A stretch of 64,000 nt of DNA from Marsupella aquatica (lineage: Eukaryota; Plantae; Marchantiophyta): the NCBI GenBank assembly GCA_973895155.1, contig OZ316892.1:13575270-13639269 (forward strand). The letters run 5' to 3'. The notes under the pieces were generated by a model that searched no databases, was not told the origin of the DNA, and saw only the letters and a list, made by a program, of their open reading frames with translations. A program made the translations under genes and the position numbers. This document shows positions 5,851 through 54,359 of this stretch, in pieces. The first letter of the stretch is position 1. Each line of letters begins with the position of its first letter.

Positions 5851-6200
5851 GTCCCTGATGTCCAGTATTCTTTCACAGTAATGTAATTTGCTACATTTAG
5901 CTCTACTTGATCCGTCTTGTCTCGATTCACACAGCGGTCCTATCGCTCTCTTTGGGATTGGATGACTTTAAACACCAATCCAATTCATTCGAATTTAGTT
6001 CGATTCGGGTTAGTAATCCTCATCTTGTGATTTTGGAGGCTTCTTCGCCCCCTCGCTGTGCGCAAGGATATGCTCACCGTATTTACACAATTTATCCAAA
6101 ACGATTCGCGCTTTCTGAGAAAGCAAATGACAGTCCTTTGCTCATGGTATAATGGATCTGGATCTGCAGCCGCTGCGAACCGGTTCTTTCACCACAGTAC

Positions 6201-10905: not shown

Positions 10906-11876
10906 GAGGCTGTTAGTGGAATGGGGTGTTTGACCTCCACTGGTTAACACATGTCAACATTGCCTGTCTACTAAAGTGACTAGATTGATACCCTCAAAAA
11001 AATAGGAAAATGGGACCCAATGCCTGTCATTAATATTAGCCCCGGGGGCAAACCAACTCAAGGGAAACCAAAACTAGTCTGGCCATGAGATTTGGGACAG
11101 CCACCTGATAGTGGCCAGCTCAAGTTCCCAGCTAAATTGATACCTTACTTCTGGGATTTACTAAATTGACATTCTTTTGTTGCATAATACTTACTTGCCC
11201 CTGATTTCTTTCTATTTAGCACAATGTTATTTTTTGCATTCATGGGTTTTTTCATTCATGTCCAATGGTTGTTATTGGATCTAGTGGCGCAATTGTACAC
11301 ACCAGTCTCCCTCAAGGTGACTTGACTATGTTGAGCATCGACGACAATCGCAGCAAGATGGTTCGTTGGCAAGCCCATGAACCATCCAACGCACAAGAGT
11401 CGACACAGAGAGATACGTGGTTCACCTCCACATGAGGCTACGTCCACGGGAACACACAAGAGCTTTACTGCATTCTAGGCCGACCGGCCATACCAAGCAT
11501 CCACAGCACAAGCTCTCTCTATCTCTCAACTAGCTCCGTAAGAATGAGCCTGAGTTCCACCTCTCCAAGCAAACACCACTTGGTTATAGAGTGTGCATAG
11601 CATGACTAACCTAACCAAGTCTGCAACTAAGGTTAGCCTTAACTACGATACAGTCGTAACTCTAGACCTAAGAGTAAATCCTAACAATCTCCCCCTTGAC
11701 TCTGGTCTAGGGAGGGTAAAGATTGCACCCTATATGATTGCTCAGCGGGAAGTTCTGGAAAGAAAAACCAAACTGGTTTTTCCCTCTTTATACGAGAGTA
11801 GACCATAACTAAGCCGTAGCCTATACAAGGAATGAGCAAGAGCATATCTCAGTATCTACACAAATGTTAAGTAACC

Positions 11877-22216: not shown

Positions 22217-24129
22217 ATGAGAAAATCACGAAAAAATGACATTTTTCACAACTTCTCAAAAAACTCAAAACTAATCATCGCGGCGTAGCCCACGAGGCTA
22301 GGAGTCCACGAGGCTCCCCCTGGTCACTCCGGGCCGCCCTTGGAGCGAGGCGCCCTCGGGTCGCTCTTGGAGTGAGGCTCCCTCGGGTCACTCCGGGTCT
22401 CCCTAGAAACCCTGTTGCTACGAAAATCCCGCCGCAATTCCCGGACAAAGTTACTGTTCACTAGCTTTGTCATTTTCCTTGTGCCCTAGGTCGCCGCCGC
22501 ACCTCACCTCTCCGCGATGCACTAAATTGCCGTAGGAAACACAATTTGCCAACATCCAACGTTGCTTGCTGCCGCCAATTCCACGAGTAAAAATGATGAC
22601 CGCCGACGGGGAAATGTTGTTGAATTGCACAGGCACAATCTGCAAGCTCAGCAGAGAAAAAATCTTTCGTCGTGTCACACTCACTCCGCGTCAAGTGCCA
22701 ATCCCGGACTCAAAATGACCGTCTTGACGCGATCAAAACATTGAGCCATAGCACTTTGCATTTCTTCCTCCAAGATGGATGTGACGACGAGTAACCCGGT
22801 TCAGATGAGAACAAGCTCCATAGTCTGTGAAAAAATCTGAACGTCTCCTTCACTCGTCATGACGCACTCGGTAACCATTTGACAGCAACTCAACTACCAA
22901 AATGAACAGCTCGCTTTAACCTCCAACATGAGCTATAACATGCGATGCCTCCCGCACCGCACAACTCAAACCGTTGAAAAAATGATCTCTGGTTTCTCCC
23001 CCGAAATATCGTCGAACACGAAAAAACTCCAGATCGACGCAAACTTTGATTCCTCCGCACCACGGATACCGATCAGCGAGTTCTAATCACCGTTAGAAAG
23101 CCCTCTCACTATTCTATCCGTTCAGCCACACACATTCAAGTTTCATGCGACGAAACTCTGAATGTAACACCGACAATGAACGCTAGAAAACCGTCACAAA
23201 AAAGACCTCGTCACCTCCCAGGCATGCTCTGATACCAATTGTTGAGCATCGACAACAATCGCAATGGCAAGCCCATGAACCATCCAACGCACAAAAGTCG
23301 ACACAGAGAGATACGTGGTTCACCTCCACATGAGGCTACGTCCACGGGAACACACAAGAGCTTTACTGCACTCTAGGCCGACCGGCCATATCAAGCATCC
23401 ACAGCACAAGCTCTCTCTATCTCTCAACTAGCTCCGTAAGAATGAGCCTGAGTTCCACCTCTCCAAGCAAACACCACTTGGTTACAGAGTGTGCATAGCA
23501 TGACTAACCTAACCAAGTCTGCAACTAAGGTTAGCCTTAACTACGGTACAGTCGTAACTCTAGACCTAAGAGTAAATCCTAACAGACTACCCTTGGGTCA
23601 ACTGACTGAGAAGTAGGTTGGCTGGCCTCCTTACCATTCTCCTATGTATAGCCTCTGTGCAGGCAAACGGCTTCTCCGCGTCCAGAGAATCAGAGGCCGT
23701 GCTTGATGGTGGTCAAAGTCACCTTCAGGTACACTGGAACAGTATTATCATGACTCCGGATGCAATGACAACCATTGGATGTAAAGGAGATGACCTGAGC
23801 TAATTTTCTTAACCCATGAATGAAAACAATGACATGATTGTGATAAATAGGAGAAAAATCAATAACTGTTAAGATACATGCTAGTTTACTTGACTATAAG
23901 TTAACCTAACCATGATTAGGACCATATAACTCTTGTTCCTAACACCTATTAATACCAACCACACAGGAGAAGACATTGACAGTTGGAGATTTAATGTGGC
24001 ATCCTCTCGATTCTCATGGCAATGCCTTCCACATCTTCGAACAATAACAAGGTAAGTTTGCCACAAAAGAGTGGTAATCCAGAGACCCGGTACTTATTTA
24101 TGTGACAAGCTATTTTGTTATTATTTTAG

Positions 24130-34558: not shown

Positions 34559-36891
34559 TGTTGAGCATAGACGACAATCGTAACGGCAAGCCCATGAACC
34601 ATCCAACGCACAAGAGTCGACATAGAGAGATACGTAGTTCACCTCCACATGAGGCTACGTCCAAGGGAACACACATGAGCTTTACTGCACTCTAGACCGA
34701 CCGGCCATACCAAGCATCCACAACGCAAGCTCTCTCTATCTCTCAACTAACTCCGTAACAATGAGCCTGAGTTCCCCCTCTCCAAGCAAACACCGCTTGG
34801 TTATAGAGTGTGCACAACATGACTAACCTAACCAAGTCTGCGACTAAGGTTAGCCTTAACTACGATATATTCATAACTCTAGACCTAAGAGTAAATCCTA
34901 ACAATCTCCCCCTTGACTCTGGTCTAGGGGAGGGTAAAGACTGCTACCAATATGACTGCTCAATGGGAAGTTCTGGAAAGAAAAACCAAACCGGTTTTTC
35001 CCTCTTTATACGAGAGTAGACCAGAACTAAGCCGTAGCCTATACAAGGAATGAGCAAGAGCATATCTCAGTATCTACACAAATGTTAAGTAACCCTACTT
35101 GTGAGGCAATTGCAAAACCTGCAACGCATCACGGTGTCTAGAAAAACTCTCCAAAGGAATCACTTTGGTAAAAGCGTCAGCCAGGTTGAGTTTACCGTCA
35201 ATCTTGACTAGCTCAAACATATTATCAGACACAGCCTGCCTGATAAAATGGTACCTGACGTCGATGTGCTTCACTCTACTGTCCATCACCTGGTTCACAG
35301 CAAGGTGGAGTGCACTTTGACTATCACAATGGAGCTTCACATTCCCCTATGGCAATCTCATCTCAGTGATAAGTCTATCCAACCAAATCGCTTCCTTTGT
35401 TGCTTCCGCTGCTACAACATACCCGCTTCTGTAGTAGACTGAGCAATATACTTTTGCAAAGTAGACCTCCAACTTATGCATCCACCTCCAAGTGTGAACA
35501 CATAACCTGTTGTTGACCTCCTCCGATCCAGATCCTGTGCATAGTCAGCATCTACATAGCCCATCAATGATCTAGCATTATCAGCATGTGCATCAAACAA
35601 TAGACCATGATCCACGGTACCATTCAAATACCAAATAATCCACTTCACTGCTTCCCAGTGTACCTTCCCTGGATTCGACATGTACCTGCTCACCTTGCCC
35701 ATAGCCATGGCAAGATCAGGTCTAGTGCAAGTCATCAAATACATGAGACTCCCCACTGCCTTGTCATACGGAACCTTTGACATCAACCCCTTCTCTGTCT
35801 CATCCGTAGGATAGAAAGCTGATGACAACTTGAAGTGTGGAGCCAACGGGGTATTTACTGGCTTGCTATCCCCCATGTTGAACCTTGCAATTACCTTCCT
35901 CGCATAACTGCTCTGCGTCAACCATAGCTTACCAACCTTCAAGTCCCTAGTGATCTCCATACCCAAAATTCTCTTAGCTAGCCCTAAGTCCTTCATCTTA
36001 AACTCTGCACTAAGCAGTGCCTTGAGCTTAACAATATCAGACCTATCATTGGCCGCAATAAGCATGTCATCCACATAAAGTACTAAAACAATGAACCCAA
36101 AAACAACATTCTTCACCGATTTAAGATACACACATGGGTCAAACACACTCCTGTGAAAGCCTTGTGCATGGATCCAATCATCAAACCGCTTATTCCACTG
36201 TCTTGGTGACTACTTCAACCCGTACAAGGATCTCACCAATCTGCAAACCAAATCCTCTTGCCCTTTCTTCACAAAACCTAGCAGTTGTCTCATGAAGATC
36301 ACCTCTTCCAAGATGCCATAGAGGAAGGCTGTGACAACATCCATCTGATCTAGCAGCAGACCAAACATAACAACAAGCACACACAATAGCCGTATTGTTG
36401 AGTACTTAGCAACTGGTGAGAAGACCTCATTGTAATCCACACCTTTTTCCTGTGTGAATCCCTTGGCTACCAACCTAGCTTTGTAGACCTTCGATCCACC
36501 TCCTATGGATTGATCCTTCAGCTTGTATATCCACTTGCTGTCCCTCAGGCAGCTTGACAAGCTCCCAAGTTTTGTTGTCCTTCAGTGACTGCATTTCCAT
36601 TTTCATTGCTACAGCCCACTCTTGCTTCTCCTTTGAAGCACTTGCTTCATGAAATGAAGAAGGTTCCCCTTCTTCCAAAATCAACGCGTCACCCTCATCA
36701 TCAGTAACAAAGTCCTCTTGCAATTGAGATGAATCAACCCACTGTCCATACCTTGGTGGAGCGCGTATAGTGCGACCAGATGCTCTTCTAGCCGATGACT
36801 CCGGTTGATCTGCGTGTGCTCGTACAATTTGAAGCTCAGCAGCATCCACTTGCTACTCACCAACATCAACAAACTCCTCTGGTTTCTCTGG
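34559..36891 (-). mobile_element. Truncated Ty1/copia element C, same family as A: 3' LTR, RNase H, RT and part of the INT linker
   Basis: 345-bp LTR at 34559-34903 nearly identical to the A LTRs, PPT present, pol near-identical to A 11877-13700. Ends abruptly at the TIR of element D and does not resume. Confidence 0.95.
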
Positions 36892-37356
36892 CACCTCGGG
36901 GGTCTCACTATATGGAGGACCCCCCCATCACCTGCGACGTTTTCATGCCTAGACCCCCATACTTATTAAGTTGAAAATTTTTTTTCCTCCCTCTTTCTTT
37001 CTTCTAAGAGTCTAAAATCCAAATTGTATTGCCCCTATAATTTGTGAAGTAAAGTGTCACATATCAATATAAAATGCCTAGAAAGAAAAGATAAGTCTAT
37101 GTCAGTACCTTGTGAAGTCGTATGTCAGACATGGCACGCCCTGCAACAGTTCTTGCACCTTTGTCGACCTTAAACTTTGATCATTTCAATGCATCATTTA
37201 TATTGTGTACCTAAAAGGTCATCCCAATATAAATCTTACGTGCATAAGTGGGATGGCCTTTAAGGTCACAACATAAATAATCCATTCCACCCATTGATCA
37301 CCAATCCCATGCTCCATCCATACTCCATTTAAAACTTATGTTGAGAGATGTAACAT

Positions 37357-37415
37357 GTGACGGAGGGGAATTGAACCCCTAATTGAGAAAGGATCTCAAG
37401 TTGCCAATCCGTCAC
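37357..37415 (-). ncRNA. D-armless tRNA-like structure with B-box; possible A-box at 37428-37440
   Basis: Minus strand reads GTGACGG ATTGGCAAC TTGAG-ATCCTTT-CTCAA TT AGGGG-TTCAATT-CCCCT CCGTCAC: perfect 7-bp acceptor stem, 5+7 anticodon-like arm and canonical T arm. Confidence 0.6.
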
Positions 37416-37450
37416 CCCCTATCCTATCCCACTACACCCACTAATATTAA

Positions 37451-37529
37451 CAAAATAAAATATATATACAGACTCTCAAAAACTAAACAACAAAATAAAA
37501 CATATATACAGACTCTCAAAAACTAAACA
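37451..37529. repeat. 40-bp tandem duplication in the transposase 3' region
   Basis: caaaataaaa(t/c)atatatacagactctcaaaaactaaaca occurs twice. Confidence 0.9.
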
Positions 37530-37541
37530 GTAACATGATAT

Positions 37542-40500
37542 TCATACCATTGTTTGAAGATACTGATCCAAAGCACGTCTATCTATTGGATCCAACACAT
37601 AGATACGATCCATAACCCCTTCTTTCATGGTTAAACTAACACTAGCAATGACCATTTCAATATCCATCCATTTCAAATCAGTGGTATCATATCTGAATTC
37701 ACTTTTGCTCTTACCAATAGGACTATACCAATTTAACAACAGTTCACAAATGTTACCTGATTGCCCTGCAAGTGGAGTTGGCCTATCCATCAAATCAATT
37801 GGTGACCGACAATTGCCCCACCTACTGCCATACTTCTGTCTCATTTGGACAATCCGACCCAACCAAAAATATTTCTTACCTGCTGAGATTGCCTCCACCA
37901 CAACCTTATTCTTTCCTCCCTTTCTTTTTCCAGATCTAGTACTTGGAGCAAGACTATCATCAGACTCAAATGCAATTGCACAATCAGTGCCAACATCAAC
38001 AAAACATGAGTTAGGATTGACTTCTTGCACTTTTCTCTTGCCAGTACTATAGTATAGCACTTGTTTCACCCTTGTCAGCCTATCTTTTGACAAATGCGGA
38101 TTTCCTACCAACTGGCTTACCAGAGTGGATTTGTAAATCACCTTGCCTTCATAAGTAACAGTAGGCACTACCTTGGTACGATTCTGTACATTAGTTACAG
38201 CATGGACAACTGATCCAAACACATGCCGAACTTCATGACCTAATGTCTCAAGCTCATCTGAGGGGTCTACATCAAACTGTATATCATCTCTGTGTACATC
38301 ATCTGAATGCATCTCAGGAACAACAATGGGATCTGGTTCTGTTAACCATGCATCTATTCTATTCAGATCATCCTCAGGATCTTCCAATTCATGAAAATCT
38401 CCAGTTGGGCGAGGACCTATGTCTGGTGGTTGGTGCTCTACTTGCTCCTCAGAATCATTGCAAACAATTGCTTCCTTCAGAACCACCTCTAGTGGCCAGG
38501 TCTCACTTTCCACAACCCAAGGACATGTCCACCATCTCTTTCTAGCTGCTGGTAAGGAACTTCGTGGAGACATCTGCAATTGATGCATAAGATCCTTAGC
38601 AGCAACAAAACCTTCTTTAAGGGCTGCAACCACTAATTCATTAGTCTCAATGAGAGAATAGTCAAGTAGATTTGGTGCTTCCTCCCCTTCCCCTATAGGA
38701 TGAATCTTCCCCCATACATGATCTTGTTTCTTATGTGAACGACCTATCTTCAAGCCTTCTGGTCCATATTCTAGGGCAGCAAGCCGGTTCAGTCCAACAG
38801 CACTATCCAATAGAGAGCCAAAATCATAATTCCGCTCATGGCCACTCATGCCTCCTACCTTGCTGAAGAAAATCTCACAACAATCTGAACCTAGCAAGTG
38901 GAAGGGAACACCTAGATGTGGGAACTTATCTCGAAAGGCACAAATTAACAGCACAATGAAATGACATGACATGTTAACATCATGAAAAGCCTGAATAGAC
39001 ATCATGTCTTTCTCAGTGTGTGCTGCAAAGTTCCCACCCACTGAATGGTCACCAAACCTCAACCACAATCTCCACAAACGTAGAAAGAATGAAACCTTGG
39101 ATGCTAACACAATACGGGACCTCAAATCATGAACTGGAGAAAAGAAAATATCTAAGTAATCTGCACAAATCTCCAAGTACAACTGAGTTCCTAAACTTCG
39201 TTCATGTTGTACATCTCTCCTCTCATACATATCTTTCAGACATTGCTGCACTCTTCTTGCTGCTATTCGTTGTGGACCTGCCCAATTCTGCCGGTCAGTC
39301 CTATTCACATCATCCCAAGCCATGCCATGTTCATGAATTGGATAATGATTGTAGACATTAGCTACATAAGATAAAGATGCATGTTGATCTCCTAGCACCA
39401 GTAAAGAAGACACTCTGTCTAAGGGGTTTATCATCTTTTTCCCATTATGAGGTTGGTCTTGGTCACCAAAGCCATACAAATCTCCATTTGGTAGAATTGA
39501 AACAGAGTATGTCCACCCTTCCCACCCAACTCCGTACCTTGGGTATGATCCATTCTGCCCTCTGTAATCTTCCAGCATCAGCTTTCGGCGACGTGCATCA
39601 CCATCACTAGCATGTCCAAGCAAAGGGCCTACCATAGCTCTACAATATTCATCCCAAAAAGCCTTTAACTGGACCCAATGCTCTCGTACCCAAGAAGCTG
39701 TGAACTTATTACAAGTTGGAAGTGCACACACAGCCAATTTAGGTAAGGACTCATGCAGAGGATTCACAATCACAACTCGGGCATACATGCACTTGGGGCA
39801 TTGTTCAAATGTACTTACAATTTTATCATACCCCTCATCACCTTCACCAACTAGAATTTCCAAACCATAGGAGCATACATGCTGCTCTGAAGGTCCACAG
39901 AAACCAATGAGAGTATCATACTTTGCCTCCCACCTGAAACACAGACATGCAATTTTTCAATATCACAGCAATTCCAGCCAAGTGCTACTTGTAAAGTCAT
40001 TAAAAAAACAATTGGAAAAATGTCCAGTTCCAATTACCTAGGGCGTTCTTTGATCCTTGTTTCATCCTCAGCAAAGATAACAGGCACATCCCCCTCAATG
40101 CCCAATGAGTGCTTTGCAGCAGACAACACTCTAGCAATCTCCTGAAAGGTTTCCTTCCGTAACCCGGTTCGAAAAGGTGTGAGTTTTGCTCTATCACGTT
40201 TTAGGGTCACAAGGCTAGGGGCTGTCAAGTTTCGTGCAAAACAATGAGCAACTTGACGGCCCCCAAATTGGAACATAGCCTGAGCAATAGCTCGAGTCCT
40301 ATTACTGTAACGATTACCTTTTGGCTTCCTGCCTAAATTGCGAGCTACATCCTTCAAGAAATCCCACAAACCCTCCTTACCACCAAATGCACCATTCCTG
40401 TGTCCATTCAAAATACTCCTAAGAAACAATCTCAAATCCTTCCTGTCTGCTGCAACTCCTAACAACTCCTCTAGTTTTCGTTTCCTGGTGCTCAAGGCAC

Positions 40501-42118
40501 ATACTTTCTGAGCCTGCAAAGCTAACAACCAACGCTCTTTTCGTCGCACAGAGTTCAGGTTGTGCACTTGATCTCTTAACTCTGTGTTGGTCAAATAATC
40601 CAAACGTATACCACCAGCAGTGGTTCGGCTCCCTCTGTGGACTACTGCTTCCGCTTCCCTGTGCACCCGTCCACGAAAATCATCTTCTAGTGTTATAGAA
40701 TCACATTCACTACAAGTTAGATTTTCAAATCCTCCTCCATTCTGTGATAACCTCAAGCAATCCTTGTGTCTAAAACAGCCTGCTATACTCACAACACTCT
40801 CTCTACTTGGATGGAAAACATCCAAGCAACAACTTGGCTCACAATGCCATGTAATTCCCCCAGACTGATCATCTAAAATGCCAGAAATATCATAAGATAT
40901 ACCCTTCCATAACAGTCGAGGCACACCTCTCTCTACCCATAATCCCCAGCAAAGCAAACTCAGACCAAGATCAACAGATTCACACACACCTGAACCTGAA
41001 CCTGAACTGCTGCCTGTCCGGGACCCATCATCTTTAAAGAACTTCAAAATCCCGCTCTGACCAGGATGTAGGTCCCTAGAATCAGTCCTCTTTGGCCTGC
41101 CCCTCTTCCCAGACCTCAAGGCAAGCATTTTTGTGTCATGCCTAGTCTCCAATGCATCCAAGTGATCTCGACTCACTAAGTGTGTCCTCAAATTGGGCTC
41201 CAAGGTAAGCTTCTTGGGGCACAAGTCAGTGTGAAGCATTCCACAGACAGTACATCGAACCTTAAACAGGAAAGACCTGTTTACATACTCAGGAGTACTG
41301 GGATCAGGAACAATAGAGAATAGTTTGCCATCATCCCCAAGCTCAGCATTCAATCGTTGAACTATCTCAACACCTACTTTGATGGCGTCTGCATGATCAT
41401 ATTCTGGCTTCTCAGAGATGTCTGCTACCTGAACCAAAGTAGAAGGAATGCCCCTTCTCCGACAATAGTTATCCTTGTGCTTATTGAAGACCAAGTGTTT
41501 GGTCTTAAAATTACTAAAGCAATTGGAGATGGATTTAGGGTTCTGAGAGTTGTCTGCATTGCCATAAGTTTCCCTACATTCAAGACACTCCAGATGCCCT
41601 CGAACATCTGTCCCCTCATCCCAGGTACGAATTCTCCAATTGTGATCACCATAACCCTTCTTATGTACCCATTTCTCTAACCTCATCCACTCATCTTTCC
41701 ATAGCTTTGATGGGACATCTCCCATCAATTGTGACTCAAAAGAAGCCCTTACAGGGGAGGGTGCTAGTGCCGTTGGCCCCAGTTGTGGTGTCCCAGTATT
41801 TGGACCCAATGATGCAGGAGTGCAAGGATGACAGGGTACTGGTGGGATCCTCCCACCATCTCCAAGTTCTTGTTGTACAACAATAACTCTTCCATCCAGC
41901 TCAGACAGATCAATTAATTTCTCATGTACAAGTTTCACTCGACCAGGAAGTCTCTCATCCCAAAAATCAAAGTCAAAGTCTAGAGTAGAGGCAATACGAG
42001 CCCTAAAATCATGTAGGGTGTGTCCTTCTTTGAATGACAAAACACAAATTGGTAAATCAGCCTTGTCATCCCCAACTTTGCGTATTAATTTAACAGAGTT
42101 GGGTTTAGGGGCTGCCAT
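37542..42118 (-). CDS. P-element-like DDE transposase, ~1490 aa, two exons (42118-40038, 39933-37542)
   Basis: A 104-nt intron (AG|GTAATT..TTTCAG|G) joins the 694-aa and 773-aa ORFs in frame to give IFAEDETRIKERPRWEAKYDTLIGFCG. Further motifs: HASDGD, DQPHNGKK (DxxH), DRQN, GTQLYL..YLDIFF, LGSDCCEIFFS. No internal stops. Confidence 0.85.
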
Positions 42119-42613
42119 TGCAATACAAATCTAGAACATGCATAGCACCATTGCTTTTGGAGTTGATAACAGAAAGACCTGCACAAATACATTTGAAATA
42201 CACACAAGGGAAACACATTAGGATCTTCAAGAGATGCAATGACAACATACACATTCTCATGTAATGTACATAATGTCAGCATACATTTAACAATAGAAGT
42301 GCTAATAGGCCAAAACACTTTATAATGCAATCCATCATACATGCAAATGTATTCAGTGAAAATCATGATATACCGCTAAAGTTGGATAAAATATCTTTGG
42401 ACAAAATATCCTTTTCGCCTGCTTTTCTAACAATTCCCGAAGTTTAGTGCTTCTGCTCATCAAAATGCAGCACTATTAGTGACCTTAATTATGACAAAAT
42501 GTCAACACTAATAAAATTGGGTACTACCACCCATGATGCACCTTAAGTATGTGCCTTGCTCATACCCCACTAAGACGTTGAAACCTAAGTAATAGGTTTG
42601 TTCATTATTCAGA

Positions 42614-43288
42614 TCATTGGAGCCATGAAATGTGGTCCCTGATTGGAGTCTTGAGGTGTGGATCAATAGGATGACGGGGGCAATAAAACATCTGTCGCTG
42701 TTGTCCATGTGCTTCATGGTCCCAGATGTCCCTATCATGAGCGAACCCTTTGCTTTTGATCATCTGGAGACAATCTGTATGCCAGGCATTTGGACATCGT
42801 AGACATTGTACCATGTTCTTGACCATCTGACCCTCAAGACTCTGATAACATGTCACACATGTATGCAGTGGGCAGGACTTTGCATCAGCTACCAAACACC
42901 CAAAGCAATAAAATCGTACACAAAAACGATCAGAGCATTTTCGCACAATTGTAGGTGACGGTCCCACAGTGCGGCACCCATAACACATGGCCTGGTCCTG
43001 GTTACAATTTGGGCAAAACCATGGCTTCCCTCCATGATGGAGGGGAAGGACTACACAGGGGCAAGAGTCATTAGGGGCTTCATCTCCAACCACATAATGA
43101 AATTGCCTGTGACATGGCCCATCACAAATTACCAACTTCCCACCATGCTCACAAATTGCACAAACATGAGGGCTAGTTTGTAGAATCTCTTGCTCAGAGA
43201 ACAACGGAATACGCAATACCTCTTCCAAAGAGGCTCCTCTGTCAGAGGACTGTGTTGCTTTCTTTATGTTTGAAGTCCTTGTCGGCAT
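42614..43288 (-). CDS. EDM2-like composite PHD-finger protein (transposon cargo)
   Basis: CAICEHGGKLVICDGPCHRQFH..WFCPNC..CYGC..CSDRFCVRFY..CPLHTCVTC..QCLRCPNAWHTDCL..FYCPRHPIDPHLKTPIRDH. The Cys/His spacing and the YCxxHxIDxxLxTPxRDH ending recall the EDM2 PHD cassette. The true 5' end is uncertain. Confidence 0.8.
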   Translation of the reverse strand: MPTRTSNIKKATQSSDRGASLEEVLRIPLFSEQEILQTSPHVCAICEHGGKLVICDGPCHRQFHYVVGDEAPNDSCPCVVLPLHHGGKPWFCPNCNQDQAMCYGCRTVGPSPTIVRKCSDRFCVRFYCFGCLVADAKSCPLHTCVTCYQSLEGQMVKNMVQCLRCPNAWHTDCLQMIKSKGFAHDRDIWDHEAHGQQRQMFYCPRHPIDPHLKTPIRDHISWLQ

Positions 43289-43604
43289 GGTTCAACTGCA
43301 ATCATCACAAAGCACATCACATATGAGGGGGACATGATGATAGTGAGCAATCCATAGACAAAGATAAGGTTAATCATAGCACCTGCTCCAATGATCTGCA
43401 AACCTCCCTCCCAGATGAAGTCAACTACACAGTGCAACCTGAACACCCACCAACCAAGACATACATAAATACAATGCCAGCTTGCAAAACTTTGCCACAT
43501 AATGGGAATGAAAAATATTCTCATATATCATGGATGGTACAATTGCAGCCTTGCAAACAAAGGCCTAGTCATATATGAACAACGCATCCATGTACTATCA
43601 AGGA

Positions 43605-44003
43605 CTACAATGTCAAGCATCCATGGGTTGTAACCTTAGCTTGATCTGATATACTATCTGGGGCTACAATATCAAGCTCAGTTGAATGTGGAATACTATC
43701 AGGGACTACAATGTCAAGCGTGTCCGGGATGACAATCTTGCGTAAAAGACACTCATTTTGAGGCCAAATGGTTGGCCTTATACAAGAGCACTTCCAACGA
43801 CGTGTGACAACTTTGCCATGCTTTCCCATGTATGTCCTAGTAACAAGCCTTCCACGCATTTTCAAGCAGAAGCAATGGAACCATTCAAAATTCCCATCAC
43901 CAACCCTGCACTTGACACAAGGTTCACACCAGCAACATTCATCTGGATGCTGCAGAAGGAGCTTCTCATAATTCGCTTCTAATGTAATGCCCAATATAGC
44001 CAT
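43605..44003 (-). CDS. Small Cys-rich PHD-like ORF or exon (cargo)
   Basis: CCWCEPCVKC..EWFHCFCL..WKCSC; good start context (gccATGg); possible donor after 43635; DIV(V/A)PDSI repeats. Confidence 0.5.
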   Translation of the reverse strand: MAILGITLEANYEKLLLQHPDECCWCEPCVKCRVGDGNFEWFHCFCLKMRGRLVTRTYMGKHGKVVTRRWKCSCIRPTIWPQNECLLRKIVIPDTLDIVVPDSIPHSTELDIVAPDSISDQAKVTTHGCLTL

Positions 44004-45242
44004 GGCACTATTTTTTTATACTCGGTGAATGGCCAGACGATTAGACGTGCAATGACAGGCAACTTACAATTCACTAGGTACACTATGTGTTCTAGCAAAC
44101 TGCTTCACCGCAAGTGTTGGTGCTCACTGCTGCAAGCGCTGATGACAACCTCTACAATTCCTTTTGCAACCTGTGAACAAAATTGAAACCACCATTCAAT
44201 TTCTAAGTTTCAAAAACTTCCCATTACATGAAGACAACCAATTGGCCATGCATGTTACTACAGCAATAAAATAATAACCCAATCGCTCAACAGACCTGAA
44301 TAGCTAACCTGAATAGGATCAAGTTCAGAATCCAGAATGGTAATGCCCTTGCCCAGAAGCTTGAGAAACAAAAGAGAATTTAAAATCAAGCACGAGCGTC
44401 ATCCACGTCTTGACCAGGCCCGCCACCCAGTATGGCTGGAGGCTGTGGTCCCCCCTGGCTGAGTAAACACTTAAAGAAGTCTTCTCTTCTAGATGACTTA
44501 AAGAAAATTGCAGGAACCAGCCAACGGGACACCAAGGCATGTAATAGAGAACCAGATTTGTGCGGGTGTGTGGGGGACGACAGAAGTCAAGTTACATGAT
44601 TTTTTTCCTGGGGTCCAGCCCATGGATGGAGATCATGTAAGGTGGTCAATCATGGCAAGTGCAATCATTGGAGACCTGTACTCGCGGTTACTCTAACGAT
44701 GCATCCAAAAAACATGTGCGTCAAGTCGTCGATGCGGACACAGAAGGAGAGATGAGTATGGACAACGTCGAGACAAATGACGACAATACTGAGCTAGTAT
44801 TCGGCTGGGAAGTTGGAGCTGGATCTCAGCAGTGGCTCCAAACCTTATCTGCGAGGGCATGGCGAGCTCTGGAGGACAAAATACTCAAAGAGCTTATCGC
44901 CATTCACGGAGCTCAGAACAGGAATTTTATAGTTGAAAAGCTAAACGGGCAGATCAGGTGCTTCCTCGTCTATGACCGCTACCAGATCGACTCTAGGTGT
45001 GCCATGCGTGATAGATTTGGGCGTCAAATAGTAGCAAGCAAGCAAGTACGATCGTCAAAGTAGGCAGCGCCTACCTCCCGATTGAGCAACGCAGCAATGC
45101 AGCTCCAATCCTGGCACTCCGGTTTGAGATATCGCAACACTCCCTGCAGTAGCCACCTCCCGTTTCAGCAAGCTAGCAGCTCCCATTTTAGAAAGCAGCA
45201 ATGCAACACTCTCGACACCCACCTCCCGGAGCGCAACACTCT

Positions 45243-46090
45243 TGCTCGATCCTTCACTCCCGGGTTCACTTCAAGCAGCAGCGCAGCTACAAAGTCTCGC
45301 TCTCCCCTTCACTCCCGGGTTCACTTCAAGCAGCAGCGCAGCTGCAAAGTGTCGCTCTCCCCTTCACTCTAATCAGCACACGCAACTGAGAAGTCTCGCT
45401 CTCTCCTTCACTCTAATCAGCGCACGCAACTGAGAAGTCTCGCTCTCCCCTTCACTCTAAGCAGCAGCGCAGCTGAGATGTCTCGCTCTCCCCTTCACTC
45501 TAAACAGCAGCGCAGCCAGGAACTCTTGGTCGATCCTTCACTTCAAGCAGCAACGGCAACAGCACAGCCGAGAGCGCAACACTCTCGCTCTCCCCTTCAC
45601 TCCAAGTAGCAGCGCTTCACTCGATCCTTCGCTCGATCCTTCGCCGAGAACTCTCGCTCTCCCCTTCACTCTCGCTCTCCCCTTCACTCCTTCGCTCGAT
45701 CCTTCGCCGAGAACTCTTGCTTGATCTTTCACTCCAGCCGCAGCAGCAACGCAGCTCGATCCTTCTCCGAGAAATCTTGCTTGATCCTTCACTCCAGCCG
45801 CAGCAGCAACGCAGCTCGATCCTTCACTCCAGCCGCAGCTCGATCCTTCACTCCAGCCGCAGCTCGATCCTTCACTCCAGCCGCAGCTCGATCCTTCACT
45901 CCAGCCGCAGCAGCAACGCAGCTCGATCCTTCACTCCAGCCGCAGCAGCAGTGCAGTCGAGAGCACAACAGGAGTCGATCCTTCACTCCAGCAACAGTGT
46001 AGTCGAGAGCACACTCTCGCTCGATCCGACCTTCACTCCAAGTGCAGTCGAGAGCACACTCTCGCTCGATCCGACCTTCACTCCAAGCAG
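45243..46090. repeat. Complex tandem array inside D with 24-, ~45- and ~55-bp units sharing a CCTTCACTC core
   Basis: cgatccttcactccagccgcagct repeats at 45817-45910; ccttcactctaatcagc..tctcgctct units at 45361-45510; about twenty core copies by eye. Confidence 0.9.
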
Positions 46091-48734
46091 GAGCACAACT
46101 GGTTTAGACCCCGTTTAGGCCATTTGCTGCAAGGTACAAACAAAAGAGACTCTGTTGAGGCAAAGAGCGGGTGGGGCCAAAGGGATAGTGGAGGGAAACG
46201 ACACGGGAGGGACTGACAAGGGCCAATTGAGGTAAACGAGACACGTTAAACAGAAAAATTTCAAACTTAATCCCGGTCAAACCCTAAACGTGAGTCCCCA
46301 TAAAACCAGATCATTCTCAAATTCTTGCCATGTTAACATATTAGAAAAATTAGGAAAATATATTGGGAATGTTATGTGTGCCACGTGTACCAATGACATA
46401 GTGACATGTGTACTTTACATAGTCCGACACAAAGACCCCCTAACTTCTTTGTATGCCTTCCATCTACAAAGTCAAAAATATTAATATCCCTATTATTCTT
46501 ACAAGTTGTCCAACATATAAAGTTGGCCCTATTGTTCTTACACAAATCTTCTTAAGTCTTCCGAGAAACCCAATTAACGGACCCTATACTTCGTCGCACG
46601 TGATATGAGATTTTCGCGGAGTGAGACCCCCGAGATGGTGACGGGGTCACTGTTTGCCAGAACCATATCGTAACTTAGCGTTGGATTATAATTGTGTATA
46701 TAAACTGAAAGACAAATCATTTGTCGTGTAAATCATTTGATATCTGACATTATACAAGGAGAACTTTGCTCTAAACCGCCTCCGCATGACTCATTGATCA
46801 TGTAATCACCATACCTAGTAACGAAGGTAGAGCCTGACCGCTGTCTTCAATGTGGAAACTGTCTCTGTAGTTATCAAACACTCAGCACCTTCCTCACATG
46901 TTAAGTAGATATTGAATGGCAAATGACAAAGTTCATAAACTTTCTGGCCTTTGGCAACCCAAACTTTTAAAATCAAATAAAACAATGAAGCCGGGCAACT
47001 AAGCCTTGCCCAACTCATATATAGGCAGCACCATAGATTGACCCAATCCATTGCTCAGGGCTTTCCCCGGCAGTTTGGGGAGGCATAAACTGCCACTCTC
47101 CCCATAGCAAAACCTGGTGAATCCACAGTACTAAAATAAGTCAATAATATTCTCAAGAAATTTAAAAAGTGCACCATTTTGTCCTCCCTGAAGCTAGTGG
47201 ACAGTGGAGGTTTAAGCACCTGTTACATGCAACAGAGCCCTTATCATACTCTACAAGCAGGTCTACAAGCCCCTCCACGTGGCAGGGAATTTGGCAGGTA
47301 ATTTGGCAGGTAATTGAACCTTACACCTTTAGATCCTTGAGTCAATCTTCTTCTTAGCTCAACAAGTCTCACTCAAGTTTTACTTTTACATCCCAACTAA
47401 AATGCAAGATAGAAACTAGAAAAGTAGCTGGCTTTGATTAGTTGGCTAGGGAATTAGCCTGGAACCGAGAGGTCCCAGATACAACCCCCCTCCACACGCA
47501 AGGGATGTAAAGGCAGTGTGGAGATGTGCAATGGTGGGAGTATTGGTTTCTCCTTGTTAAGAATTGCTCTTAGTCTTGTGACTCATAGGTTATGGCACTT
47601 AGGCTAACCACAGTTAGGATCTTAGCTGAGGTTAGGTTAGTCGTGTGTGACCTTGTATATACCAGGGCTAGTGTAAGCCGCTGGTGTGGTGTGCTTACGG
47701 ATTGTAACGGAGAAACTTGAGGAAGAGGGAGAGCATGTGTGTTCGTTTACTCTTGAAGTAAAGCTTGAGTGTTCGTGTGGACGTAACCTTGGAGAAGAGG
47801 TGAACCACGTAGAGATTGTGTCAACTACGTGTGCATGGAATGAGTCATGGTTGTATGGTCGTTGCAAATGACATCTTAGTTCAACAATTGGTATCAGAGC
47901 AAGCCTGGGAGGTGACGTTGAGGTGATCAAATTTTTGTGACGTGTTGGCGACGGTTTTTCCAGCAGTTAGAGTTGGTGGATTTCACGGAGATCTATTGCA
48001 TGGAACTTGGAGGTGTTGGGCTCAACAGATAGATCGGGGCAAGGGCTTTCCGACGGTGCAAAGAAATCTCTGAACAGAGTTCGTGGTGCGGAGGAATTCA
48101 TGTTTCCGTCGTTCTGGATTTTTTGTGATTCGTGTTCGACGGTTCTTTGGGGGGGGGAACTGAGATCGTTTTCCCGACGGTGTGAGCTTTGTGGTGCACG
48201 AGGCGTCACAATCTTTAGCTCAAATCGTAGATCGGGCAAAGCTGATCATTTCGGTAGCTGGTTTGCTATCGAGGGTGTAGTAGTGCGATGTACCAAGCAA
48301 AAGAGCCGTTCTGAGTTTCTGACTGGCTATGGAGTCTTCTTTTGACTGAAGCGCGGTTTCTTGTCGTTGCGTTCGACTCAAAGGAAGAAACGGGAAGTGC
48401 AACGGCTCAACGGAGAGATCGCGATGCAGTGGTCATTTTGAGTCCAAGATTGACACTTGACGCGGAGTGAAGGAGTCGTGACGGGAATTTTTTACTCTGC
48501 TAGAGTTGCAAACGGTGCCGGTGCAATTCGGTAACATTTCCCGTCGACAACTAGTCTTTATCTGGTGTAAAGTGATAACGGCAGTGTGAGTAACCCAACA
48601 AATTTATTTTTTGTGCACATTTTGCCTTAGAATAGGGCCTTTTTGGTGGTGTGTATACACACCCTCCCGACCCTTGCACCCCTGTCAATACCCCGTTGGC
48701 AACCCCCTCCTCCTCCTCGCTAATACTCCCATCG

Positions 48735-48890
48735 CGGACGTCCCGGCCGTCCCAGACGTCGCAACCGGCACAGACGTCCCAGACGTCACGGCCGGCGAGG
48801 ACGTCGCGGCCGTACCGGACGTCGCAGCCGGCACGGACGTCCCAGACGACCTGACTGTCGCAGGCGTCTCGGACGTCCCGGCCGTCGCAG
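48735..48890. repeat. GC-rich degenerate ~18-bp repeats in the leader of E
   Basis: Recurring gacgtcccagacgtcgc and ggacgtcccggccgtc units. Confidence 0.75.
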
Positions 48891-49605
48891 CTCCATCCCT
48901 ACCTATTTTGACTTGGTTTTTTACTCCACGGCCCCCTATGCACTGCCTGGCCCGTCACGCGTCGCCTATACGCGGATGCACCTTTTTTAAGACAGTATTT
49001 TTGTGTTAAGGGGCTTAAACCCCCTTAGGCCCGGTTTTTTAATCCTTTCCAGGCTTCTCATTCGTTAAACGGCATCTTGGGCCCGGTGACCCACCAAATT
49101 AACCGCTTGGACAGGGGGAACGACCCCCTGTGAGACCTGTTGCACAGTCCAAGGAATATTCCGAAAAAAACAGAGAGCTGTTTTTCGGCCTTTAGTCAAA
49201 GATTCCAAGGTCCGAACAGTAACTTTTTTTAGATCTTTTTTGGCGAGAACGTAGCCACTGAAGCTAGCAACTCGGTGCACCACTCGATTTGAAGTTCTGA
49301 CGACGGGTGGTACTTGGAATTTTTCTTATTCCCCAAGGTGGTCAAAACGGGGAAGAATTTTTGAGTTTTACCCACCCCGACCAAACGTGAAAAAGTTTTT
49401 CGTCGGAACTCGATTTCAATTTTGGATTTCAGCGTTGGCTTGCTAGGTTGGTGGGCTAAGTGGCGGTGATAAGTTTCAAGTTTTTTGGAAAGTTGCGAAA
49501 AATGACATTTTTTCGTGATTTGGATTTGAGTCAACGAGAAGGAAGGAAGGAAAAAGCATATAAGGAGTAGCACAGCAATAGCACGTGGAGAACATTGGGA
49601 GGATA

Positions 49606-52600
49606 ATGATGGCATCTAAGTTTGGAGGTGTCAAGTTTGAGGTGGAAAAATATGATGGGCGCACAGATTATTTGCTATGGGAGAAGCAGGTTAAGGGAAT
49701 TCTTCGTGCTATGGGCCTAGATTATCTGCTATCGACTCAGGAGGAGTCTAGCAGTGAGGAGGAGATTCCGTTGAGGAAATGGAGGCAAGAGCAAGTGATT
49801 GCTGTGAATGTGGTTATGCTGTATCTGAAGCCGCATATCATTAAGAAGCTGGACGACTACGAGGATTGCATATCCTTATTCAAGGCCCTCAGAGAGAAGT
49901 ACTACCGAGAGGATGCCTCAGATCGGTTGTACAAGAAGTCTCTCTTGATGAGCTTGAGGCTAAAAGAAGGAGGCAAGCTTCGAGATCACTTGGATGAATT
50001 CGACAGCCTAGCTGTAGATTTGTCAAATCTTGGCAAGGGAGTGGAAGATGAAGATAAGGCATTGCTTCTTCTCAGTTCCTTACCCCCTCGTATCAAAGTT
50101 TGAAGCAGGTTCTCTTGTATAGAGATCTCAAAACCATTTTATATGATGAGGTGGTAAGCTCTTTGTTGTCAGATGATGCACAGAAGAAACTGGGTCATGC
50201 CCAAACACCATCTTCATCTGGCAGTGCATTGAATGTAAATCGCGGGAGGACTCAACAACGGATGACTGGTGAAAACAGGTCCTTTTCACAAACGTACCCC
50301 TCACGGAATAGAGGCAAGGAGAAGGCTCACTCTAAGTCTAGATCCAGGTCTAGAGAGAAATCTCTAGAAAGGAAACCAATTATATGCTGGAAATGTAACA
50401 AGCCTGGCCACATGAAACGAGACTGTCGAGTCAAGCAGACTCATCAACCATCAGCGAACGCAACCACTGATGTTGATATGATTGACTTGCTTGATGATGA
50501 AATCTTGTGAAGTCCAGATGTTGCCCTTTGCATTTCATCCAGTAACAATGGTGATGAATGGATTTTAGATTGTGCCTGTACCTATCATATTTGTTGTATG
50601 AAAGAGTTTTTTACTTCTTACTCAGTATCAACCGGTTCCGTGTTGATGGGGAATGATCATCCTTGTCAAATTGTTGGAATTGGATCCATGAAAATTCGGA
50701 TGTTTGATGGAGCTGTCCGAACAGTGAGTAATGTCAGACACATACCTGACATGAAAAAGAACTTGATTTCTCTTGGAATGTTGGAAGCAAATGGATGTCA
50801 GTGGAGTCTGCTGATGGTATTCTTCAAGTGTCAACCGGAGGCAAGGTTGTCATGAAGGGTAAGCGGCACAGGAATCTATATTTGTTGGAGGGCAACGTGA
50901 TTTGTGAAGAAGCCAATGTAACTAGATCTCAAGGCGAGATGACTCAGTTATGGCACTGCAGATTGGGACACATGAGTGAAAAAGGTTTTGCGGTACTTCG
51001 CAGGAAAGGACTTCTTTCTAATTTGGAATCTACTAAGCTAGATTTTTGTGAACACTGTGTGCTTGGGAAGCAGCACAAGAGAACCTTTGGTGTTGGAACT
51101 CACAATACCAAAGCTATACTTGAGTATGTACATAGTGATGTGTGGGGTCCAGCCCCAACTCCCTCACTTTTTGGAAAATTGTACTATGTCACGTTCATTG
51201 ATGATTACTCACGGTATGTGTGGATCACATTTCTACACGCCAAGTCTGAAGTTTTTGGCACTTTTAAGAAGTGGAAAGCCCAAATTGAGAATCAAACTGG
51301 ATCCAAGGTGAGATATCTGCGATCAGATAACGGCGGGGAGTACAGTTCAAGTGAGTTTGAACTATATTGTGTAGAGCAAGGGATTACTCGTCATCTCACG
51401 ACAGTTTATACTCCTCAACAGAATGATGTTTGTGAGCGGCTAAACCGAACACTATTGGAGCGATCGAGGAGTATGTTGAGCCAATCAGGTTTACCACATG
51501 AATTTTGGGCTGAAGCTATAAATACAGCAGCTTATTTGGTAAATCTTTCTCCTTCAAGTGCAATCAATTTCAAGACGCCGTTTGAAATGAGATATGGACG
51601 GCACGCAGACTATCAGGTTTTGAGAGTCTTTGGAAGTGATGCATATGCTCTCACACCTAAGCATAATCGATCTAAACTAGATTCTACTTCCAAGAAGTGT
51701 CTTTTTCTTGGTTATCAACCAGGTGTGAAAGGTTATAGGCTATGGGATCCAGAAGCTTGTACGTTGCTTGTCAGTAGAGATGTATCCTTTAATGAATCCA
51801 GATCATCAAAGGAGGGGGAGAATGCTCAGGCTTCCCGTACTGACAAAGGTAAATCTCCTATCCTGGACCATGTTGTGGGGGAGATTGGTCATGAGAGTTT
51901 TCATGACATAAATGAAGGAGGTGCTCCGAGAATGGATCTGGTTCCGGTATTGGAACAAGAGGAGCAAGTTGTTGTTGGAATACCTCAAATTCAACCAACA
52001 GAACAAGATCAACCAGAATCATCAGCTAGAAAATCAAGACGTACTACTCAAGCTCCTACAAGGTATGGACAATGGACAGATTCATCAAGGTTAGATGATG
52101 TTGACATTGCACCTGAAGATGATGACAGAGCACTGATCTTGGAAGAAGGAGAACCTTCTCCTTATCATGAGGCGTGCATTTCAGACGAGAAAGATGAATG
52201 GAATGCAGCGATGCAGAGGGAGTTGCAATCTTTAAGTGACAACAGAACATGAGAGCTGGTGCAACTGCCAAGTGATCAACAAGTGGTGGATAGCAAATGG
52301 ATTTACAAGCTGAAGGACAACTCTTCAGATGGAGGAGACAAGATATACAAGGCAAGGCTTGTTGCCAAGGGATTCACTCAAGAGAAGGGAGTGGATTACA
52401 ATGAGGTCTTCTCTCCAGTTGCCAAGTATTTCACGATACGAATTTTGTGTCAACTTGTTATGTTTTTTGATCGATCTGGTGTTAGATCAAATGGATGTTG
52501 TTACTGCTTTTCTCTATGGCACCTTGGAAGAACAAATTTTCATGAGGCAACCACTGGGCTTTGTGAAGAAGGGCCAAGAGAGTTTAGTTTGCAGGTTGCT

Positions 52601-53741
52601 TAAGTCCTTGTATGGATTGAAGCAAGCTCCTCGACAATGGAACAAACGGTTTGATGATTTCATGCTTGCACAAGGATTCACTAGGATGGTGTATGACCCT
52701 TGTGTGTATACAAAATCAGTCAAGAATGGTGTGTTTGGTTTGCTCATTCTGGTGCTCTATGTGGATGACATGTTGATTGCGGCTAAGGATCAAACTGAGG
52801 TTGACAAACTCAAAGCAAAATTGAGTTCTGAATTCCGAATGAAGGATCTTGGGAAAGCCAAGAAGATCTTAGGTATGGAGATTACGAGGAACTTTGAAAC
52901 TGGACAATTGTGGCTGAATCAAGGCAAGTATGCTGAAAAGGTACTTGCAAGATTCAACATGGAAAATTGTAAGCCAGTAAGTATTCCTTTGGCTCCACAT
53001 TTCAAGTTATCATCGGCTTTCTGCCCCACGGATCCAGTGGAGAGAGGCTTGATGACTAAGGTTCCTTATGAGAAGGCAGTGGGCAGTCTAATGTATTTGA
53101 TGACATGTACCAGGCCTGATCTAGCCCTAGCAATGGGCAAAGTGAGTAGATTCATGTCAAATCCAGGGAAGGTACATTGGGAGGCTGTGAAATGGATTCT
53201 CAGGTATCTTAAGGGCACAATAGACTATGGTCTGTTATTTGATAGTAGATCAAACAAAACCAAATCTTTGGTTGGCTATGTAGATTCTGACTACGGAGGC
53301 TGTCTGGAAACAAGGAGGTCAACGACTGGGTATGTGTTTACTCTTGGAAGAGGATGCATAAGTTGGAGATCTACCTTGCAGAAGTGTGTATCTCAGTCTA
53401 CTACAGAAGCAGAATATGTTGCAGCAGCAGAAGCAGCAAAGGAAGCAATTTGGTTGGATAAGCTGGCCACTGAGATGGGATTGGAGCATGGAAAAATGAC
53501 TCTTCATTGTGACAGCCAAAGTGCGCTTCACCTAGCTATAAACCAGGTTATGGATAGCAGGGTGAAACACATTGACATCAGGTACCATTTTATTAGGCAA
53601 GCAATGTCTGATAAAATGTTTGAGCTAGTCAAGATTGATGGAAAGCTCAACCCGGCTGATGCTTTTACCAAAGTGATTCCTTTGGAGAGTTACTCAAGAC
53701 ATCGTGCTACTTTGCAAGTTTTGCATTTGCAGCACAAGTAG
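49606..53741 (+). pseudogene. Element E gag-pol with frameshifts and stops
   Basis: EKYDG..DYLLW, CWKCNKPGH, WILDCAC, HSDVWGP, RSDNGGEY, YVDDML and KHIDIRYHF motifs; lesions near 50090, 50810, 52250 and 52470. Confidence 0.95.
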
Positions 53742-54359
53742 AGTAACTTAATAATATGTAATTTTTGTATATGGGTTACTCAATCCTGTTATGGCTACGG
53801 CTTAATTCTAGTTAACCCTTAGTTAACCTTAAATGGTTTTTAGGGGGACACCTATGGTTTTAGGTGATTGTCTAGAATTTCCCGTTGAGTATCTCATATG
53901 GATAGCAGAAATTGCAGTCTCCAAGACTAGAGTCAAGGGGGAGTTTGTTAAGAATTGCTCTTAGTCTTGTGACTCATAGGTTACGGCACTTAGGCTAACC
54001 AAAGTTAGGATCTTAGCTGAGGTTAGGTTAGTCGTGTGTGACTTTGTATATACCAGGGCTAGTGTAAGCCGCTGGTGTGGTGTGCTTACTGATTGTAACG
54101 GAGCAACTTGAGGAAGAGGGAGAGCATGTGTGTTCGTTTACTCTTGAAGTAAAGCTTGAGTGTTCGTGTGGATGTAGCCTTGGAGAAGAGGTGAACCACG
54201 TAGAGATTGTGTCGACTACGTGTGCATGGAATGAGTCATGGTTGTATGGTCATTGCGAATGACATCTTAGTTCAACACTCCTCAGCCTCTAGCTGGTCAC
54301 TTTGGGGCCCTAGTCCAACTCTCTCTCCTTCCTAGTATGGGTAGTGTTGGATCCCTGAC

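Follow-up and report, generated by a model that had tools for sequence, protein, structure and literature searches.

This locus raises the question of whether a transposon of the P superfamily resides in a land plant genome. In this study, a 64,000-nt stretch of the liverwort Marsupella aquatica (assembly GCA_973895155.1, contig OZ316892.1, positions 13,575,270 to 13,639,269 of the forward strand), referred to hereafter as the window, was analysed following a sequence-only reading, which had proposed that two minus-strand open reading frames (ORFs) joined by an intron encode a P-type transposase. The transposase gene was found to lie inside a DNA transposon of 9,740 bp (36895-46634, minus strand), approximately twice the span given in that reading. 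We consider it very probable that this is a multi-copy, 9.74-kb transposon of the P superfamily, with 15-bp inverted ends and a one-intron gene for a 1490-aa transposase of the P catalytic fold. Statements taken from the literature, here and below, refer to the accessible parts of the papers cited.

The two long ORFs of the transposase gene span 42130-40034 and 39956-37542. Excision of 40037-39934 (104 nt, GT..AG) joined them into a frame of 4473 nt, with the ATG at 42118, encoding 1490 aa plus the stop codon. The excised segment was AT-rich (GC content of 0.34 vs. 0.45 and 0.43 in the exons), was not a multiple of three in length and contained stop codons in all three frames. Other GT/GC-AG pairs that keep the frame open were rejected, as their removal would delete conserved residues. 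The intron site was compared in the 35 of 80 related loci that had matches on both sides, near-duplicates and two degenerate loci being excluded. No extra bases were present in 25 of the 35, and 30 were within 5 nt; the remainder comprised two loci with 51 additional bases, two with large negative values (loose alignment ends), and L004 with 119 additional bases. The insert in L004 was a 119-nt GT-AG intron of unrelated sequence, located at the same codon and in the same phase. In loci L001 and L003, the frame ran without a break for 1517 and 1520 codons, respectively, and matched both exons end to end. Among the protein relatives, P0209 ended at the same residue as the first frame of the window, and the alignments of P0009, P0014, and P0019 started right behind it; these boundaries suggest that the intron is common to part of the plant clade. 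The joined frame is colinear with the intronless relatives; by this comparison the intron is real, and it is predicted to be spliced out. In the distant relatives L068, L072-L074, and L080, about three gaps of 200–500 nt interrupted the core; these are probably other introns.

The P motifs named in the sequence-only reading were all present, and in the stated order, in the 1490-aa product: D685-E-T, S-D804-G, D853xxH856xxK859, D907RQN, D955IF, and S-D1044xxE1047FF. The long insertion between the second catalytic aspartate and the glutamate was also observed, D804 and E1047 being 243 residues apart as compared with 228 in the Drosophila P transposase (D303/E531), the catalytic triad (D230/D303/E531) and insertion features of which are described in PMC7776569. 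Also used in characterising P is a [C/D](2)H motif that follows the second catalytic D and lies at D339 in Drosophila (PMC8230255). In 117 core sequences, selected from 248 BLAST matches by coverage, D685, D804, and E1047 were kept in 110, 115, and 111, and the D and H of D-x2-H in 115 and 117, respectively.

A profile built from 62 relatives had a single PDB match under an E value of 0.01, the Drosophila P transposase (6P5A, E = 6.6e-4). It aligned in two segments, with D230 at the D685 column and D339xxH342xxK345 at D853xxH856xxK859; D804 and E1047 were equated with D303 and E531 by motif and position. In the ESM Atlas, the top cluster for the core was P transposase (0.94), and 10 of the 10 best family matches fell in one clan. 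The comparison with the Drosophila P structure, which had been suggested as a check, was run on the AlphaFold model (predicted local distance difference test score, pLDDT, of 80.3) of P0003, a protein from Riccia sharing 57% identity with exon 2, as a stand-in for the window protein. This model matched 6PE2 and 6P5A with Z scores of 25.9 and 25.4 and root-mean-square deviations (rmsd) of 3.4 and 3.2 over 398 and 393 residues, respectively; the match covered the helix-turn-helix (HTH) to the C-terminal domain (CTD), residues 148-569 of 6PE2, and included the P-type helical insertion. The next structural matches were Transib (Z 12.2), RAG1 (Z 10.9), and Hermes (Z 8.8, rmsd 7.8). Drosophila P transposase was thus the best match by both structure and profile, upholding the superfamily originally proposed, and a P-element catalytic fold is predicted for the window transposase. 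In exon 2, the P-type helical insertion starting from D853 is followed by the CTD, an acidic linker, and a C-terminal beta domain; a coiled coil and an HTH are likely in exon 1.

The ends of the element are 5'-CTCGGGGG, with termini reading 5'-CTC...GAG-3'. The 5'-CA termini claimed earlier were not borne out; these CA dinucleotides belong to the flanks, the left one lying in a copia retrotransposon interrupted by the element. Contigs of other copies diverged from the window exactly behind 46634 into unlike flanks in three runs (8, 5, and 13 contigs, with flank agreement of 0.44, 0.51, and 0.39, respectively); in a fourth run, no contig diverging there was among the matches listed. In run X1, contig depth was flat and high over 37002-44683 and went from several hundred in the element to 3.88 in the right flank past 46634. 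Contigs of 1,130 and 1,075 bp in this run had 0 and 2 differences at a depth of approximately 500 (contig depth not being equal to copy number), which suggests that the family was recently amplified and has many young copies. The 13-bp subterminal pattern, derived from the two matching sites themselves, had 2 matches in the window as compared with 0.13 expected, a number reached in 0 of 100 shuffles; these repeats are candidate transposase binding sites. A 40-bp tandem duplication at 37449-37529, in the 3' untranslated part, was missing from some copies. The 5' terminal 110 bp (46520-46630) was common to a family 5–20 times deeper in all four runs, the terminal repeat of which is similar to that of the element with one base changed; this short family likely represents abundant non-autonomous partners, i.e., miniature inverted-repeat transposable elements.

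Target site duplications (TSDs) were observed in relatives. The element at L003 (50% aa identity) measures 6,096 bp; its terminal inverted repeat (TIR) is 26 bp long and begins CTCGGGGGGG, and its 8-bp TSD, GTTTTCAT, is exact. L030 (about 32% aa identity) spans 7,503 bp between exact 8-bp TSDs, GTTACAGC; its ends are CCCGGGGGGG, the left one carrying two extra C. One end of this type each was found in L002, L027, L028, and L031. The ends of the relatives start with CTC or CCC, the shared form being 5'-C(C/T)CGGGGG. The TSD length in the two complete relatives is in agreement with the 7–8 bp expected earlier and falls within the 7–9 bp range of the P superfamily (PMC3698922). Other candidates from the TIR/TSD scan of 31 loci were rejected as short AT-rich chance pairs. 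Many target flanks of the relatives begin with G or GT, which fits P (target motif described in PMC2577343) but also hAT, and they were hence not used as evidence.

The same features bear on whether the element could be a member of hAT, MULE, or CMC/Transib/Lanisha, in which insertion domains also occur. An 8-bp TSD and a C/D-x2-H motif are features of hAT too, and GT-starting targets fit hAT elements such as Hermes (GTGNNCAC) and hobo (GTTTAAAC) (PMC2577343); the Z scores of Hermes (8.8) and Transib (12.2), however, were far below that of P (25.9), and no hAT or MULE match was found in Pfam. Lanisha, a moss superfamily briefly described in PMC8245031, is likewise a cut-and-paste transposon from a bryophyte (Ceratodon purpureus), but it belongs to the CMCT group and has C(2)C/H(3-4)H motifs, CA..TG ends, and TSDs of 2–5 bp (PMC12730594), whereas the conserved columns here read D-x2-H-x2-KK and the TSD is 8 bp; identity with Lanisha was rejected on these published features, the two being set apart by description. 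MULE and Kolobok gave no Pfam match, and no eukaryotic structure of either was among the best 50 structural matches listed. The TSD is 9 bp in MULE and TTAA in Kolobok. Membership in hAT, MULE, or CMC/Transib/Lanisha is extremely unlikely.

Several observations weigh against the P assignment. Neither exon as a single sequence had a match in Pfam or PDB, Pfam gave one weak match on 32 aligned relatives, and structural identity to P was just 14–15%; a profile of 32 sequences did not reach the P transposase in PDB. The fold was predicted for the relative P0003, not for the window's own spliced protein, and the FastTree phylogeny given below was midpoint-rooted and contained lineage members only, with no canonical P sequences. 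No THAP domain was found in exon 1 by Pfam, and the THAP pattern was absent from exon 1 and from 47 sequences. The GTP pocket of Drosophila P is formed by K385, K400, V401, S409, F443, D444, N447, and D528 (PMC7776569). When these eight residues were mapped by hidden Markov model alignment, with D528 placed by motif, only the equivalents of D444 (D955) and D528 (D1044) were identical; the unmatched positions read G, N, W, A, L, and F, with K385, K400, and N447 changed to G, N, and F, respectively. Across the 117 cores, the D444 column held D in 29, E in 25, S in 19, and L in 18. A credible pair of TIR and TSD was found in only 2 of the 31 loci scanned (L003 and L030), L001 had the same kind of TIR with no TSD, and no TSD was present at the window copy, the flanks of which (TCTGGCAC and ATGGTGAC) differ.

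These points could be accommodated by a separate superfamily sister to P, having the same fold, other ends and another DNA-binding module, and possibly no GTP cofactor. Such a superfamily would fit with the failure of the P-family Pfam models to detect the lineage, the low identity to 6P5A, the family-wide C(C/T)CGGGGG ends, a four-cysteine motif in place of THAP, the changed GTP pocket, and the large size of the family (923 representatives at E ≤ 1e-30; 5,556 at E ≤ 0.001). However, the structural match extends over the whole core including the P-specific insertion, the P signature DxxH was aligned, weak Pfam TNP-like/Tnp_P_element matches were obtained in three relatives (P0061, P0087, and P0097), and the TSD is 8 bp. 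Unless the mechanism differs, the difference would be one of naming. We regard a separate superfamily as doubtful, and the family is considered a divergent P lineage undetected by Pfam. Absence of THAP is expected for P outside animals (PMC7776569).

The non-matching flanks could also mean that the gene does not belong to a mobile element, being either a relic (dead or frameshifted) or a gene domesticated by the host. A CpG observed/expected ratio of 0.28, suggestive of a methylated history, is in the same direction. Standing against this are the open frame of 1490 codons, the perfect TIRs, the many near-identical copies with unlike flanks, and the intron position shared with L004, which make it very unlikely. 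The 3' part of the interrupted copia is 93% identical to a copy of the same family at 11329-13692 in the window, whereas the right flank of the element lacks the 5' part. Given this and the mismatched flanks, the missing TSD would be better explained by recombination involving two copies, by a deletion next to the element, or by a join made during assembly.

As for DNA binding by the P transposase, the sequence-only reading had noted two C2H2-type fingers and no THAP domain, both of which were confirmed, and had placed the fingers as the replacement for THAP, which was not. A family-wide four-cysteine motif sits at that place, with C390, C454, C469, and C472 conserved in 44, 41, 43, and 44 of 47 sequences, respectively. 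This motif is likely the THAP substitute, with putative zinc binding; it is a better candidate than the fingers because it is kept family-wide, immediately before the segment that aligns with the P dimerisation/HTH domains, whereas both fingers are conserved among close relatives. With the two lysines and the asparagine of the GTP pocket changed, the window transposase may or may not use GTP, with about equal probability.

The C-terminal portion of approximately 150 residues was modelled with low confidence (pLDDT 62.7). Its predicted barrel had a best Z score of 6.6 (rmsd 2.4–3.1, about 80 residues aligned), with chromo barrels tying at Z 6.1; BAH was named in 9 of the 21 top titles, and 8 more of these 21 are what we take to be BAH-bearing proteins. 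Foldseek gave no match at E ≤ 0.001 for this domain (E > 0.1), and nothing credible was found with the N- and C-terminal profiles among PDB sequences. The BAH-like nature of the tail is a lead only, coming from the predicted model. A conserved beta-rich domain makes up the first 85 residues (41860-42118, minus strand); it also occurs in L001, L003, L006, and Riccia P0212 and is presumably ubiquitin/PB1-like as judged by eye. The distant relative P0060 starts with a PB1-like acidic motif, and the distant members P0089 and P0096 have C-terminal add-on domains, SAP (E = 6e-10) and C1 (E = 5e-6), suggesting that accessory modules are often swapped in the lineage.

Two additional cysteine-rich ORFs are located upstream of the transposase on the same strand, within the multi-copy body of flat depth. 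The tandem-PHD ORF matched Pfam PHDvar_NSD (E = 5.8e-8) and NSD2 (E = 4.2e-6), and its top Atlas cluster (0.92) was commonest in Streptophyta. The tandem arrangement is shared with the NSD-type PHD cluster; in contrast to NSD, the ORF stands alone inside a transposon and has no SET domain. It may also resemble the composite PHD of plant EDM2. No Pfam match was found for the other ORF. Both were absent from 80 related loci (tblastn for the PHD ORF), and no longer relative of the PHD ORF was found in a weak search. At 43292, where the PHD frame has its 5' edge, contigs in three runs had one extra base. A possible splice acceptor (43296) lies next to it, and the joining of the two ORFs may be different in the window copy. 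Synonymous changes accounted for 9 of 12 coding variants in the transposase, 3 of 3 in the PHD ORF, and 5 of 6 in the Cys-rich ORF, counted from 40 listed of 499 variants; these variants, few and picked by support, are in line with selection.

Named protein relatives were found in Riccia sorocarpa and R. fluitans, on contigs of 17–77 Mb, as well as in Adiantum nelumboides and the arthropod Nymphon striatum, the last being a fragment with a Pfam TNP-like RNase H; a relative in Calypogeia fissa matched exon 1 with 51% identity. Identity was 57% to Riccia vs. about 30–35% to relatives outside the plant clade. In the FastTree phylogeny, the window and P0002 grouped with Riccia as their sister (support of 0.988), and the enclosing clade, supported at 1.0, also took in Adiantum. 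There were no relatives among viral contigs or bacterial and archaeal genomes. No seed-plant name appeared among the family matches, and since the searches were length- and word-limited, absence is not implied. These results indicate that the P superfamily is present in liverworts and a fern, as based on the named Riccia, Calypogeia, and Adiantum records, and that a divergent P lineage with 5'-C(C/T)CGGGGG ends spans land plants and animals.

P elements are known from chlorophyte algae. They have been reported in animals, Trichomonas, and a few fungi (PMC3698922, PMC5751038); the accessible part of PMC9940879 makes no mention of those in algae. The earlier statement that P is poorly documented in land plants agrees with the lists of plant DNA-transposon superfamilies in the accessible parts of PMC9033089 (Table 1) and PMC6839031, which name six or seven with P not among them. 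The Riccia genome paper (PMC11735767), in its accessible part, gives no superfamily names. A full-text literature search, with Repbase, Dfam, and subscription papers outside its reach, found no report of P elements in land plants. A plant P member may already be deposited in Repbase or Dfam, a real possibility that falls short of probable.

The protein resembles Drosophila P (6P5A/6PE2) and THAP9 in its domain order, which runs from the dimerisation region through the HTH and the RNase H fold, split by the helical insertion, to the CTD, and in the DDE triad and D-x2-H motif, and the element in its short TIRs with subterminal repeats, a 3'-terminal G, a spliced gene (here predicted), and an 8-bp TSD (here in relatives). 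Unlike Drosophila P, it is without THAP, is about 1490 rather than 751 aa long, has a D1-D2 spacing of 119 rather than 73, and has several GTP contacts changed; the extra N-terminal domain, the two C2H2-type fingers, the four-cysteine motif, the C-terminal beta domain, and the PHD ORF are further differences, as are the 5'-CTC/CCC ends. Drosophila P ends read 5'-CA...TG-3'. The THAP-less P of protists and fungi (Trichomonas; Allomyces and Pucciniales), likened by description only, are also P elements outside animals (PMC3698922, PMC5751038). GingerRoot, found in Selaginella, bryophytes, and aquatic animals, has a similar spread over seed-free plants and aquatic invertebrates and shared termini, but differs in its integrase-like transposase, an unrelated enzyme, and its 6-bp TSD (PMC6839031).

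Transposition in the P superfamily is characterised by dependence on GTP and by a staggered cut of 17 nt. By analogy to P biology, the spliced mRNA would give a dimeric or tetrameric transposase, in which D685, D804, and E1047 would bind two metals; the role of THAP in recognising the terminal repeats and the 13-bp subterminal ones would be taken over by the zinc motifs together with the HTH. Both ends would be cut at the DDE site and their 3'-terminal G joined to target strands at positions separated by 8 bp, likely by cut-and-paste with an 8-bp target duplication, and the helical insertion would form a P-type pocket beside this G. The family would have been mobile recently and would also mobilise the short element, which has similar ends and is far more abundant. 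More speculatively, the PHD product and the BAH-like tail could read histone marks and thereby guide insertion or resist silencing. Taken as a whole, an ancient, vertically inherited P of seed-free plants, with THAP swapped for zinc motifs, the GTP pocket remodelled, activity retained, and histone readers steering insertion or countering silencing, namely the BAH-like tail and a PHD cassette that was captured and is under purifying selection, seems improbable.

Around the element, further copia elements occur at 14405-18262, 20473-23592, and 47500-54277, making the region a retrotransposon nest. Exons of host genes were found at 1332-5967 (minus strand; phosphatidylinositol 4-kinase alpha-type, PI4K_N) and 60298-60915 (plus strand; MIF4G-like, cap-binding-protein type). 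The nearest named relatives of the transposase, which are liverworts, point to a seed-free land plant as the likely host, probably of liverwort grade, and these spliced genes and the copia arrays fit such a host. Origin of the contig from an alga, an animal, or contamination, for which the animal member of the family in Nymphon could speak, is very unlikely.

Coordinates of the features in the window
Feature	Position	Strand	Details	Basis
Whole DNA transposon	36895..46634	-	multi-copy family	TIR pair; unlike flanks behind 46634; contig depth
5' TIR	46620..46634	-	15 bp, CTCGGGGGTCTCACT	end fixed by diverging contigs of other copies
3' TIR	36895..36909	+	15 bp, perfect match	contig joining other copia sequence to 36895
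Subterminal inverted repeat	46592..46604	-	13 bp, 30 bp from end; candidate transposase binding site	motif count
Partner subterminal repeat	36927..36939	+	13 bp, 32 bp from end	motif count
Transposase exon 1	40038..42118	-	aa 1-694	N-terminal beta-rich domain, two CxxC..H-x5-H fingers, four-cysteine motif, D685
GT-AG intron (predicted)	39934..40037	-	104 nt, phase 2, nine codons past D685	frame, composition, relatives
Transposase exon 2	37542..39933	-	aa 694-1490	rest of RNase H fold (D804, E1047), helical insertion, CTD, linker, beta domain
C2H2-type finger 1	41477..41587	-	C178/C181/H208/H214	CxxC..H-x5-H pattern
C2H2-type finger 2	41162..41254	-	C289/C292/H313/H319	CxxC..H-x5-H pattern
Four-cysteine motif	40703..40951	-	C390, C454, C469, C472	family-wide conservation
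C-terminal beta-barrel domain	37578..38012	-	about aa 1335-1479, weakly BAH-like	predicted model
Tandem-PHD ORF	42614..43291	-	225 codons, ATG at 43288; NSD-like PHD cluster	Pfam, NSD2 match, Atlas
Cys-rich ORF	43605..44015	-	136 codons, ATG at 44003; PHD-like by eye	ORF list
Complex tandem-repeat array	45157..46087	.	5' part of element	repeat search
Copia retrotransposon, 3' part	34559..36894	-	cut by left end of element	RVT_2; loose contig ends behind 36894

Through this family, P joins the transposon superfamilies of liverworts and a fern, beyond those in the accessible lists of PMC9033089 and PMC6839031, and many "hypothetical proteins" of Riccia, Calypogeia, and Adiantum missed by Pfam are accounted for. 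With its unbroken and apparently recently amplified THAP-less transposase, the family makes testable whether the GTP cofactor is superfamily-wide and by what means a P transposase lacking THAP recognises its ends. The element might also provide a native tagging tool for bryophytes. If it is true that the PHD cassette or the BAH-like tail reads histone marks, this would bear on the targeting of plant transposons and their escape from silencing.

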